This document shows, in pieces, positions 10,550 to 48,502 of a stretch of DNA of 48,502 nt. The number at the start of each line of letters is the position of its first letter. The stretch's first letter is position 1. The notes under the pieces are model-generated. The model saw only the letters and a list, made by a program, of their open reading frames with translations. It made no database searches and was not told the DNA's origin. A program made the position numbers and the translations under genes. Origin of the DNA: Escherichia phage Lambda; sequence record NC_001416.1. One strand, 5' to 3'.

Positions 10550-13103
10550 ACCGGTAGGCGATCTGGTCGTTGATTTGAGTCTGGATGCGGCCAGATTTGA
10601 CGAGCAGATGGCCAGAGTCAGGCGTCATTTTTCTGGTACGGAAAGTGATGCGAAAAAAACAGCGGCAGTCGTTGAACAGTCGCTGAGCCGACAGGCGCTG
10701 GCTGCACAGAAAGCGGGGATTTCCGTCGGGCAGTATAAAGCCGCCATGCGTATGCTGCCTGCACAGTTCACCGACGTGGCCACGCAGCTTGCAGGCGGGC
10801 AAAGTCCGTGGCTGATCCTGCTGCAACAGGGGGGGCAGGTGAAGGACTCCTTCGGCGGGATGATCCCCATGTTCAGGGGGCTTGCCGGTGCGATCACCCT
10901 GCCGATGGTGGGGGCCACCTCGCTGGCGGTGGCGACCGGTGCGCTGGCGTATGCCTGGTATCAGGGCAACTCAACCCTGTCCGATTTCAACAAAACGCTG
11001 GTCCTTTCCGGCAATCAGGCGGGACTGACGGCAGATCGTATGCTGGTCCTGTCCAGAGCCGGGCAGGCGGCAGGGCTGACGTTTAACCAGACCAGCGAGT
11101 CACTCAGCGCACTGGTTAAGGCGGGGGTAAGCGGTGAGGCTCAGATTGCGTCCATCAGCCAGAGTGTGGCGCGTTTCTCCTCTGCATCCGGCGTGGAGGT
11201 GGACAAGGTCGCTGAAGCCTTCGGGAAGCTGACCACAGACCCGACGTCGGGGCTGACGGCGATGGCTCGCCAGTTCCATAACGTGTCGGCGGAGCAGATT
11301 GCGTATGTTGCTCAGTTGCAGCGTTCCGGCGATGAAGCCGGGGCATTGCAGGCGGCGAACGAGGCCGCAACGAAAGGGTTTGATGACCAGACCCGCCGCC
11401 TGAAAGAGAACATGGGCACGCTGGAGACCTGGGCAGACAGGACTGCGCGGGCATTCAAATCCATGTGGGATGCGGTGCTGGATATTGGTCGTCCTGATAC
11501 CGCGCAGGAGATGCTGATTAAGGCAGAGGCTGCGTATAAGAAAGCAGACGACATCTGGAATCTGCGCAAGGATGATTATTTTGTTAACGATGAAGCGCGG
11601 GCGCGTTACTGGGATGATCGTGAAAAGGCCCGTCTTGCGCTTGAAGCCGCCCGAAAGAAGGCTGAGCAGCAGACTCAACAGGACAAAAATGCGCAGCAGC
11701 AGAGCGATACCGAAGCGTCACGGCTGAAATATACCGAAGAGGCGCAGAAGGCTTACGAACGGCTGCAGACGCCGCTGGAGAAATATACCGCCCGTCAGGA
11801 AGAACTGAACAAGGCACTGAAAGACGGGAAAATCCTGCAGGCGGATTACAACACGCTGATGGCGGCGGCGAAAAAGGATTATGAAGCGACGCTGAAAAAG
11901 CCGAAACAGTCCAGCGTGAAGGTGTCTGCGGGCGATCGTCAGGAAGACAGTGCTCATGCTGCCCTGCTGACGCTTCAGGCAGAACTCCGGACGCTGGAGA
12001 AGCATGCCGGAGCAAATGAGAAAATCAGCCAGCAGCGCCGGGATTTGTGGAAGGCGGAGAGTCAGTTCGCGGTACTGGAGGAGGCGGCGCAACGTCGCCA
12101 GCTGTCTGCACAGGAGAAATCCCTGCTGGCGCATAAAGATGAGACGCTGGAGTACAAACGCCAGCTGGCTGCACTTGGCGACAAGGTTACGTATCAGGAG
12201 CGCCTGAACGCGCTGGCGCAGCAGGCGGATAAATTCGCACAGCAGCAACGGGCAAAACGGGCCGCCATTGATGCGAAAAGCCGGGGGCTGACTGACCGGC
12301 AGGCAGAACGGGAAGCCACGGAACAGCGCCTGAAGGAACAGTATGGCGATAATCCGCTGGCGCTGAATAACGTCATGTCAGAGCAGAAAAAGACCTGGGC
12401 GGCTGAAGACCAGCTTCGCGGGAACTGGATGGCAGGCCTGAAGTCCGGCTGGAGTGAGTGGGAAGAGAGCGCCACGGACAGTATGTCGCAGGTAAAAAGT
12501 GCAGCCACGCAGACCTTTGATGGTATTGCACAGAATATGGCGGCGATGCTGACCGGCAGTGAGCAGAACTGGCGCAGCTTCACCCGTTCCGTGCTGTCCA
12601 TGATGACAGAAATTCTGCTTAAGCAGGCAATGGTGGGGATTGTCGGGAGTATCGGCAGCGCCATTGGCGGGGCTGTTGGTGGCGGCGCATCCGCGTCAGG
12701 CGGTACAGCCATTCAGGCCGCTGCGGCGAAATTCCATTTTGCAACCGGAGGATTTACGGGAACCGGCGGCAAATATGAGCCAGCGGGGATTGTTCACCGT
12801 GGTGAGTTTGTCTTCACGAAGGAGGCAACCAGCCGGATTGGCGTGGGGAATCTTTACCGGCTGATGCGCGGCTATGCCACCGGCGGTTATGTCGGTACAC
12901 CGGGCAGCATGGCAGACAGCCGGTCGCAGGCGTCCGGGACGTTTGAGCAGAATAACCATGTGGTGATTAACAACGACGGCACGAACGGGCAGATAGGTCC
13001 GGCTGCTCTGAAGGCGGTGTATGACATGGCCCGCAAGGGTGCCCGTGATGAAATTCAGACACAGATGCGTGATGGTGGCCTGTTCTCCGGAGGTGGACGA
13101 TGA
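10542..13103 (+). CDS. H: Tail tape measure protein gpH
   Basis: ORF track 10542..13103 (853 aa). Confidence 0.95.
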   Translation: MAEPVGDLVVDLSLDAARFDEQMARVRRHFSGTESDAKKTAAVVEQSLSRQALAAQKAGISVGQYKAAMRMLPAQFTDVATQLAGGQSPWLILLQQGGQVKDSFGGMIPMFRGLAGAITLPMVGATSLAVATGALAYAWYQGNSTLSDFNKTLVLSGNQAGLTADRMLVLSRAGQAAGLTFNQTSESLSALVKAGVSGEAQIASISQSVARFSSASGVEVDKVAEAFGKLTTDPTSGLTAMARQFHNVSAEQIAYVAQLQRSGDEAGALQAANEAATKGFDDQTRRLKENMGTLETWADRTARAFKSMWDAVLDIGRPDTAQEMLIKAEAAYKKADDIWNLRKDDYFVNDEARARYWDDREKARLALEAARKKAEQQTQQDKNAQQQSDTEASRLKYTEEAQKAYERLQTPLEKYTARQEELNKALKDGKILQADYNTLMAAAKKDYEATLKKPKQSSVKVSAGDRQEDSAHAALLTLQAELRTLEKHAGANEKISQQRRDLWKAESQFAVLEEAAQRRQLSAQEKSLLAHKDETLEYKRQLAALGDKVTYQERLNALAQQADKFAQQQRAKRAAIDAKSRGLTDRQAEREATEQRLKEQYGDNPLALNNVMSEQKKTWAAEDQLRGNWMAGLKSGWSEWEESATDSMSQVKSAATQTFDGIAQNMAAMLTGSEQNWRSFTRSVLSMMTEILLKQAMVGIVGSIGSAIGGAVGGGASASGGTAIQAAAAKFHFATGGFTGTGGKYEPAGIVHRGEFVFTKEATSRIGVGNLYRLMRGYATGGYVGTPGSMADSRSQASGTFEQNNHVVINNDGTNGQIGPAALKAVYDMARKGARDEIQTQMRDGGLFSGGGR

Positions 13104-45185: not shown

Positions 45186-45509
45186 ATGAAGATGCCAGAA
45201 AAACATGACCTGTTGGCCGCCATTCTCGCGGCAAAGGAACAAGGCATCGGGGCAATCCTTGCGTTTGCAATGGCGTACCTTCGCGGCAGATATAATGGCG
45301 GTGCGTTTACAAAAACAGTAATCGACGCAACGATGTGCGCCATTATCGCCTGGTTCATTCGTGACCTTCTCGACTTCGCCGGACTAAGTAGCAATCTCGC
45401 TTATATAACGAGCGTGTTTATCGGCTACATCGGTACTGACTCGATTGGTTCGCTTATCAAACGCTTCGCTGCTAAAAAAGCCGGAGTAGAAGATGGTAGA
45501 AATCAATAA
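45186..45509 (+). CDS. S: Holin/antiholin S (S107 from ATG 45186, S105 from ATG 45192)
   Basis: ORF track 45186..45509 (107 aa); MKM dual start. Confidence 0.96.
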
Positions 45510-45969
45510 TCAACGTAAGGCGTTCCTCGATATGCTGGCGTGGTCGGAGGGAACTGATAACGGACGTCAGAAAACCAGAAATCATGGTTATGACGTCATT
45601 GTAGGCGGAGAGCTATTTACTGATTACTCCGATCACCCTCGCAAACTTGTCACGCTAAACCCAAAACTCAAATCAACAGGCGCCGGACGCTACCAGCTTC
45701 TTTCCCGTTGGTGGGATGCCTACCGCAAGCAGCTTGGCCTGAAAGACTTCTCTCCGAAAAGTCAGGACGCTGTGGCATTGCAGCAGATTAAGGAGCGTGG
45801 CGCTTTACCTATGATTGATCGTGGTGATATCCGTCAGGCAATCGACCGTTGCAGCAATATCTGGGCTTCACTGCCGGGCGCTGGTTATGGTCAGTTCGAG
45901 CATAAGGCTGACAGCCTGATTGCAAAATTCAAAGAAGCGGGCGGAACGGTCAGAGAGATTGATGTATGA
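45493..45969 (+). CDS. R: Endolysin R (lytic transglycosylase)
   Basis: ORF track 45493..45969 (158 aa). Confidence 0.96.
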
Positions 45970-46427
45970 GCAGAGTCACCGCGATTATCTCCGCTCTGGT
46001 TATCTGCATCATCGTCTGCCTGTCATGGGCTGTTAATCATTACCGTGATAACGCCATTACCTACAAAGCCCAGCGCGACAAAAATGCCAGAGAACTGAAG
46101 CTGGCGAACGCGGCAATTACTGACATGCAGATGCGTCAGCGTGATGTTGCTGCGCTCGATGCAAAATACACGAAGGAGTTAGCTGATGCTAAAGCTGAAA
46201 ATGATGCTCTGCGTGATGATGTTGCCGCTGGTCGTCGTCGGTTGCACATCAAAGCAGTCTGTCAGTCAGTGCGTGAAGCCACCACCGCCTCCGGCGTGGA
46301 TAATGCAGCCTCCCCCCGACTGGCAGACACCGCTGAACGGGATTATTTCACCCTCAGAGAGAGGCTGATCACTATGCAAAAACAACTGGAAGGAACCCAG
46401 AAGTATATTAATGAGCAGTGCAGATAG
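45966..46427 (+). CDS. Rz: Rz, inner-membrane spanin subunit
   Basis: ORF track 45966..46427 (153 aa); N-terminal TM segment. Confidence 0.95.
46186..46368 (+). CDS. Rz1: Rz1, outer-membrane lipoprotein spanin subunit, embedded in Rz in the +1 frame
   Basis: ORF track 46186..46368 (60 aa); lipobox LVVVGC; Pro-rich. Confidence 0.92.
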
Positions 46428-46451
46428 AGTTGCCCATATCGATGGGCAACT
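46428..46451. terminator. Hairpin between convergent Rz and bor (possible bidirectional terminator)
   Basis: gttgccca tatcga tgggcaac inverted repeat read by eye. Confidence 0.45.
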
Positions 46452-46458
46452 CATGCAA

Positions 46459-46752
46459 TTATTGTGAGCAATACACACGCGCTTCCAGCGGAGTATAAAT
46501 GCCTAAAGTAATAAAACCGAGCAATCCATTTACGAATGTTTGCTGGGTTTCTGTTTTAACAACATTTTCTGCGCCGCCACAAATTTTGGCTGCATCGACA
46601 GTTTTCTTCTGCCCAATTCCAGAAACGAAGAAATGATGGGTGATGGTTTCCTTTGGTGCTACTGCTGCCGGTTTGTTTTGAACAGTAAACGTCTGTTGAG
46701 CACATCCTGTAATAAGCAGGGCCAGCGCAGTAGCGAGTAGCATTTTTTTCAT
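46459..46752 (-). CDS. bor: Bor, outer-membrane lipoprotein (serum-resistance moron)
   Basis: ORF track 46459..46752 (97 aa); lipobox LLITGC. Confidence 0.93.
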   Translation of the reverse strand: MKKMLLATALALLITGCAQQTFTVQNKPAAVAPKETITHHFFVSGIGQKKTVDAAKICGGAENVVKTETQQTFVNGLLGFITLGIYTPLEARVYCSQ

Positions 46753-48303: not shown

Positions 48304-48502
48304 GAGGTTGCCCCGTATTCAGTGTCGCTGATTTGTATTGTCTGAAGTTGTTTTTACGTTAAGTTGATGCAGATCAATTAATACGATACCTGCGTCATAA
48401 TTGATTATTTGACGTGGTTTGATGGCCTCCACGCACGTTGTGATATGTAGATGATAATCATTATCACTTTACGGGTCCTTTCCGGTGATCCGACAGGTTA
48501 CG

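Follow-up and report, generated by a model that had tools for sequence, protein, structure and literature searches.

The window, by which we mean the whole stretch of DNA that was analysed, is 48,502 bp long, and its first bases are the cos end GGGCGGCGACCT. In a BLAST search, the part from base 24000 to base 48502 matched Lambdavirus lambda records at 100% identity, and the window is phage lambda DNA. Near the end of this region the S, R and Rz genes follow one another on the + strand, and the Rz1 gene is encoded inside Rz. The features of the locus are listed below.

45186..45509, + strand: S holin/antiholin, first gene of the lysis cassette (Pfam PF05106, E=2.4e-30; HK630 annotation)
45493..45969, + strand: R endolysin, directly 5' of Rz (ORF; PHROG 90, E=3.9e-62; HK630 annotation)
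45966..46427, + strand: Rz (i-spanin), 153 codons plus TAG (Pfam PF03245, E=2.6e-54; PHROG 13)
45978..46034, + strand: N-terminal transmembrane segment of Rz, residues 5-23 (Kyte-Doolittle; AF2 helix)
46173..46178, + strand: Shine-Dalgarno sequence AAGGAG of Rz1, 7 nt 5' of the ATG (sequence)
46186..46368, + strand: Rz1 coding sequence (o-spanin precursor), 60 codons plus TGA (ORF list; Pfam PF06085; PHROG 3198; HK630 annotation)
46186..46242, + strand: lipoprotein signal peptide of Rz1, codons 1-19 (K3 and K5 in the n-region, hydrophobic h-region thereafter; Kyte-Doolittle)
46234..46245, + strand: lipobox V17-V18-G19-C20 (sequence; Cys20 is the lipidated first mature residue)
46243..46365, + strand: mature Rz1, Cys20-Gly60, over Rz residues 93-134
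46270..46272, + strand: Cys29 codon of Rz1 (cysteines at 9, 20 and 29; disulfide role from PMC5295617)
46279..46293, + strand: penta-proline of Rz1, codons 32-36 (sequence), which opens the proline-rich region and the functional core (32-54)

The Rz1 ORF in the ORF list starts with ATG, is 183 nt long including the stop codon and encodes 60 amino acids. It is wholly enclosed by Rz (153 aa, same strand) at an offset of 220 nt, which places it in the +1 frame relative to Rz (220 mod 3 = 1), as described for the published gene, which is entirely embedded in Rz in the +1 frame (PMC5295617, PMC6139136). The 60-amino acid ORF nested in another frame of Rz that an earlier note had described from the sequence is therefore exact at 46186-46368. 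Codon positions 1, 2, and 3 of Rz1 correspond to positions 2, 3, and 1 of Rz, and as a consequence of this +1 offset nearly all synonymous wobble changes in Rz alter the second codon position of Rz1. The AAGGAG sequence is read as K71-E72 in the Rz frame, and Rz1 has its own strong ribosome-binding site within Rz; the start codon of Rz itself is preceded by a weak purine run only. Folding of the RNA around the Rz1 start gave no significant structure (z=-0.99), and a search of Rz for an internal promoter of Rz1 revealed no promoter-like site on the + strand, with site counts equal to the shuffle expectation. The o-spanin gene lies within the i-spanin gene and 3' of the holin and endolysin genes, which is the layout of an embedded two-component spanin. 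The genes of the lysis cassette are closely spaced: 17 nt are shared by S and R (45493-45509), and the stop codon of R and the start codon of Rz are combined in the sequence ATGA (45966-45969). At 45186-45192, S carries a pair of start codons at a distance of two codons (MKM...), and in HK630 the S107 and S105 starts are both annotated, with the anti-holin separate from the holin.

The Rz1 translation begins with a lipoprotein signal peptide whose hydrophobic stretch covers residues 6-19 (Kyte-Doolittle maximum of 2.59 at residues 6-20), and the same first 19 residues are boxed as the signal sequence in PMC5295617. There is no second hydrophobic segment past the signal peptide, where the Kyte-Doolittle maximum is -0.51. 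The lipobox had been given in the earlier note as LVVVGC; this string is present as residues 15-20, and the canonical four-residue lipobox within it is VVGC (residues 17-20). Cys20 is given as the lipoylated residue of Rz1 (PMC5295617). Mature Rz1 consists of 41 residues counting the lipidated Cys20, and the 40 residues past this cysteine include 10 prolines, in agreement with the Pro-rich mature region previously noted. The residue at the +2 position is a threonine (Thr21) and not an aspartate. Asp at +2 is the residue for inner-membrane retention, and the presence of Thr21 at this position predicts sorting of Rz1 to the outer membrane. The protein is stated to be localised to the outer membrane in PMC5295617 and PMC6139136, where Kedzierska 1996 and Berry 2008 are cited for it. 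Cys29 is the site of the homotypic intermolecular disulfide of Rz1 (PMC5295617).

Comparison of the Rz1 translation with profile databases gave a match to Pfam PF06085 'Lipoprotein Rz1 precursor' over residues 20-59 with a score of 72.2 bits (E=2.9e-20), far above the gathering cut-off of 27.9 bits, and a match to PHROG 3198 'Rz-like spanin' (E=1.5e-29). For Rz, PF03245 'Bacteriophage Rz lysis protein' was the only Pfam match above its cut-off. The Rz gene of HK630 is 100% identical to that of the window, and the HK630 annotations 'cell lysis protein Rz' and 'Rz1 protein' map exactly to 45966..46427 and 46186..46368, respectively. No Rz or Rz1 model was matched in NCBIfam, the sole match being a sub-threshold one to PspB at the transmembrane region of Rz. 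A sequence search of the PDB returned no match for Rz1 and no solved structure of either protein; the one similarity for Rz was to ATP synthase subunit b, weak and of coiled-coil type. The latter match covers Rz residues 41-114 (~46086-46307) and the stalk of the mycobacterial subunit (E=1.6e-4), and is probably compositional, as both proteins are long membrane-anchored helices. The sequence properties of Rz1 are those of an o-spanin, namely the profile score, a signal peptide with a lipobox cysteine, and a periplasmic cysteine (Cys29). We conclude, with a probability of about 95%, that the ORF is phage lambda Rz1, the o-spanin nested in the +1 frame of the i-spanin gene Rz. No evidence contradicting this identification was found in the present analysis. 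The nesting of Rz1 in Rz is a textbook feature that is already known, and the window matches the published description throughout. The assignment of Rz and Rz1 to a two-component spanin, which the earlier note had taken from established knowledge, is borne out by Pfam (PF06085 and PF03245), the PHROGs, the HK630 annotation, and both publications (PMC5295617, PMC6139136).

The i-spanin Rz has one transmembrane domain, at the N-terminus, followed by a helical periplasmic domain in the AF2 model. The transmembrane segment has a Kyte-Doolittle maximum of 2.63 over 19 residues and is defined as residues 1-24 in PMC5295617. The AF2 single-sequence model of Rz contains helices at residues 2-108 and 118-152 with a mean pLDDT of 82. 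Rz is described as a class II inner-membrane protein and Rz1 as an outer-membrane lipoprotein (PMC5295617, PMC6139136), both forming homodimers by disulfide bonds that involve Cys99 and Cys152 of Rz and Cys29 of Rz1 (PMC6139136, PMC5295617). All cysteines named for these disulfides are present in the translations of the window. Knockout of either gene results in spherical cells with an intact outer membrane (PMC6139136), a phenotype that is masked in shaken cultures without added millimolar divalent cations (PMC6139136, PMC5295617).

According to the literature, Rz and Rz1 are both translated from the late pR' transcript that also encodes S and R. Rz is positioned in the inner membrane in an N-in/C-out orientation with two periplasmic coiled-coil helices, and binds Rz1 via the C-terminal regions of both proteins, giving a complex that spans the periplasm through the peptidoglycan mesh. 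The partners are present as disulfide-linked dimers (C29 in Rz1; C99 and C152 in Rz). Removal of the wall by holin and endolysin frees the spanin complexes, which are proposed to then draw the inner membrane and the outer membrane towards each other and bring about their fusion, thereby removing the outer membrane as the final obstacle to release. Fusion of the inner and outer membranes after loss of the peptidoglycan is a proposed or suggested model in the publications (PMC6139136, PMC5295617), and PMC6139136 cites Rajaure et al. for it. The lipidation and localisation of Rz1, complex formation, and the proposed membrane fusion rest on published work. The pair shows that a third step, the removal of the outer membrane, is required for the lysis of a Gram-negative host.

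Similarity to Rz is present in 544 phage records. A different function is implied by the many records under the match in which the gene is labelled 'endopeptidase Rz'. If this label were correct, Rz would be an endopeptidase and Rz1 an accessory lipoprotein, acting enzymatically, for example by cutting links between the peptidoglycan and the outer membrane, and not as a fusogenic complex. No peptidase family was found for Rz in Pfam, NCBIfam, or the PHROGs, and there was no peptidase among its PDB sequence matches, which comprised only the weak match to the ATP synthase subunit b stalk. In the AF2 model, Rz consists of a transmembrane helix and two long helices and lacks a globular catalytic domain, and both publications describe a periplasm-spanning complex with a fusion model (PMC5295617, PMC6139136). 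The name 'endopeptidase' is without domain or fold support, and we consider an enzymatic role of this kind very improbable.

In many of these records the naming of Rz is accompanied by omission of its partner, as Rz1 is missing and only 'endopeptidase Rz' is given in, for example, the DE3, 4W, PhiR series, 813R8, and SPN9CC records. This omission is in line with the 196 unidentified o-spanins reported in PMC6139136. Rz1 continues to escape gene callers and to be absent from many deposited records, and the mislabelling of Rz as an endopeptidase is still frequent. In AP005153, two antisense 'hypothetical proteins' are annotated inside Rz, and these look like over-calls. The record MW057783.1 ('Campylobacter phage CJLB-4', 48,361 bp) matches lambda with 100% identity across the 24.4 kb used as query and is probably lambda control DNA under a wrong name.

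Rz1 is a short protein, rich in proline and with a predicted lack of structure. A disembedded synthetic Rz/Rz1 works as well as the nested pair, so that embedding is without functional advantage (PMC6139136). These properties would suit an Rz1 that destabilises the outer membrane alone as a lipopeptide, independently of Rz, with the nesting serving only for genome compaction. Against such an independent role, knockout of either gene produces the same absolute lysis defect and the two proteins form a complex through their C-terminal regions (PMC6139136), and in natural mosaics the C-terminal half of Rz and mature Rz1 are exchanged as one block. We regard Rz-independent action of Rz1 as having hardly any chance of being correct, and the reading of the two proteins as partners in a spanin complex is retained. 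The block exchange fits co-adapted Rz and Rz1 partners, although the overlap also makes such joint exchange a physical necessity.

The mosaic structure includes a sharp joint at Rz nt 245/246 (window 46210/46211), which falls in codon 9 of Rz1. When PhiR70_1 is compared with lambda, there are 3 differences in the first 245 nt of Rz, followed by ~50% difference from nt 246, and the P22-like SPN9CC has its joint at the same place. At this joint the C-terminal half of Rz and the h-region and mature domain of Rz1 are exchanged together as a block, while the 5' half of Rz retains the Shine-Dalgarno sequence and the first 8 codons of Rz1. Other apparent joints in Rz lie near nt 62-70, 117, and 428: HK75 diverges from lambda after ~nt 117 of Rz, and the Stx phages show differences within the first ~62 nt, some of them again after nt 428. 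It is conceivable, and we offer it tentatively as a view that is rather less likely to hold than to fail, that the nt 245/246 joint is a recurrent recombination point, in which the conserved 5' half of Rz acts as a homology linker and the 3' block, with the lipobox included, passes between lambdoid phages as a single co-adapted cassette. If so, the embedding would be a linkage device that holds interacting partners together in recombination, beyond the saving of coding space.

To determine the chance expectation for a nested ORF, the codons of Rz were resampled synonymously in 20,000 trials, with the protein kept and the codon usage of the window. An ORF of at least 60 aa starting with ATG was kept in the +1 frame in 40% of these resamplings, a high retention that arises because the Rz protein fixes two of the three Rz1 codon positions. 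The length of the ORF was therefore rejected as evidence for Rz1. In the whole window there are 35 nested ORFs of at least 50 aa in another frame of the same strand. Both numbers would be compatible with the +1 ORF being a chance open frame that is allowed by the Rz protein and is not a gene. By contrast, an ORF of at least 60 aa combined with a proper lipoprotein signal was obtained in only 0.06% of the resamplings, and the optimal spacing of the strong Shine-Dalgarno sequence and the Pfam score of Rz1 also argue against a chance frame. An SD-like motif together with a loose lipobox pattern was present in two of the 35 nested ORFs, and a hydrophobic h-region in Rz1 alone. The other candidate of this pair, at 12004..12207, begins MPEQMRKSASSAGICGRRR and was rejected, being without a hydrophobic core. 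The strict lipobox filter (14 uncharged residues before the Cys) misses the known lipoprotein Bor and was put to conservative use only.

Conservation was assessed in 80 close relatives from IMG/VR, representing 41 distinct nucleotide sequences and 10 distinct Rz1 proteins. The Rz1 frame is open in 80/80 of these, and the lipobox and Cys20 are invariant. Variable alignment columns are distributed over Rz as follows.

5' Rz-only part: 54/220 columns variable (close relatives)
Rz1 overlap: 11/183 columns variable (close relatives)
3' Rz-only part: 3/59 columns variable (close relatives)

Among the wobble sites of Rz, 7/61 are variable in the overlap compared with 27/73 in the 5' Rz-only part (Fisher p=7e-4, close relatives), a test that is not decisive alone because there is just as little variation in the 3' Rz-only part and because Rz is a mosaic. 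As this comparison is confounded, the ratio between codon positions within each region was used on divergent alleles, comprising two Stx phages (~85% identity), Stx2_6804, vB_EcoS-813R8, PhiR70_1, the P22-like SPN9CC, and HK75 (n=7). All seven alleles contain an ORF of 60-68 aa that starts with ATG and is embedded in the +1 frame, each with a lipobox cysteine at residue 19 or 20 and a purine-rich SD-like stretch 5' of the ORF, which is weak in 813R8. A P-x-A-W motif, mostly PPAW, is conserved across them. In comparisons of lambda with the seven alleles, the number of substitutions at Rz codon position 3 relative to the mean of positions 1 and 2 is 1.05-1.30 in the overlap, with similar amounts of change at all three positions. 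Outside the Rz1 overlap the same ratio is 1.5-2.8 in 6/7 comparisons, the exception being PhiR70_1 with a ratio of 1.0 in a part that is nearly identical to lambda. The loss of the wobble excess within the overlap is the signature expected of selection on a second frame and supports such selection on Rz1. The alignments show the Rz1 ORF to be conserved and, as judged by this substitution pattern, constrained as a second coding frame. The view that the +1 ORF is a chance frame is already refuted by the conservation data, with the ORF intact and its cysteine invariant in close and divergent relatives alike, and by published Rz1-specific nonsense alleles that block lysis, and we assign it practically no probability.

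The close relatives also contain several natural variants of Rz1, namely L2R, V10M, L13S, V26A, P34R, A37G, G52R, P56L, and S57L. Several of these lie within regions reported to be tolerant (PMC5295617), i.e. the n-region of the signal peptide, the linker at 25-30, position 34, and the tail beyond W46. Codon 2 (46189-46191) encodes Leu (CTA) in reference lambda and Arg (CGA) in 75/80 close relatives. The L2R change is silent in Rz (A75), and the arginine would add a positive charge to the n-region.

The sharing of the DNA by Rz and Rz1 is reflected in the distribution of constraint over the two proteins. The mature Rz1 coding region lies within ~40 mutationally silent codons of Rz (Rz 94-134), and the functional core of Rz1 comprises residues 32-54 (Cahill et al., PMC5295617). 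This core maps over Rz residues 105-128. In the AF2 model the break between the two Rz helices (109-117) and the lowest pLDDT values (~101-130) coincide with the region encoding the Rz1 core. The overlap would be tolerated with the Rz1 core encoded over a flexible, mutationally silent linker of Rz. The modelled helix break lends independent support to the arrangement in which the constrained part of each gene probably lies over the tolerant part of the other, and Rz/Rz1 serves as an example of how DNA can be shared in this way. On enumeration of single-base changes, 6 were found to introduce a nonsense codon into Rz1 while being silent in Rz, and the converse holds for 8. The change 46298 G>A gives Rz1 W38am with Rz V111 unchanged, and 46263 C>T gives Rz Q100am with Rz1 V26 unchanged. 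Nonsense mutations silent in the other frame had been put forward in the earlier note as a way to check the gene pair, and this experiment is already in print, with an outcome in favour of the interpretation: RzQ100am and Rz1W38am, located here at 46263 and 46298, are the standard alleles of spanin-defective lysogens, for which PMC6139136 cites Zhang & Young 1999.

When compared with known spanins, the locus is the same gene pair as the published lambda Rz/Rz1, with agreement in coordinates, frame, lipobox, Cys29, and penta-proline. Among embedded two-component spanins, Rz/Rz1 of lambda is the type member; it is the founding phage spanin example and one of the classic fully nested out-of-frame gene pairs. 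The other lambdoid embedded spanins (Stx phages, the SPN9CC gene-15 homologue, and HK75) have the same +1 nesting, with an offset of 220 as in lambda, or of 199 in HK75. They differ from lambda in carrying different alleles of mature Rz1 and of the Rz C-terminal half, with ~45-50% nucleotide difference in the P22-like overlap, and these alleles are connected to a 5' half resembling that of lambda by a sharp mosaic joint. P2 LysB/LysC (overlapped) and T4 PseT.3/PseT.2 (separated) consist, like the lambda pair, of an inner-membrane protein with an N-terminal TMD and an outer-membrane lipoprotein (PMC6139136). The unimolecular spanin gp11 of T1 disrupts the outer membrane like the lambda proteins and complements an RzRz1 defect (PMC6139136). 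In contrast to lambda Rz1, which is without a C-terminal TMD, T1 gp11 is a single polypeptide that has a lipobox as well as a C-terminal TMD. A survey covering 677 phages counted two-component spanins in embedded (182), overlapped (228), and separated (118) form as well as 58 unimolecular spanins, and the embedded architecture was never mixed with the overlapped or separated ones within one family (PMC6139136). For the detection of nested genes, Rz1 is a positive control, a real embedded gene found from raw sequence.

A second lipoprotein gene, bor, lies next to the locus at 46459-46752 on the - strand (MKKMLLATALALLITGC; Pfam Lambda_Bor, E=1.9e-30). The gene is in convergent orientation to Rz/Rz1, with 31 bp between it and the Rz stop, and Stx phages and 813R8 have the same Rz-bor arrangement. 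Between the stops of Rz (+) and bor (-) there is a perfect 11-bp hairpin, GAGTTGCCCAT-ATCG-ATGGGCAACTC (46427-46452), with a dG of -19.3 kcal/mol (z=-5.96) and an equally good fold in 0/200 shuffles. The hairpin is absent from the terminator scan list because no T-run follows it. In HK75, a terminator is annotated after Rz.
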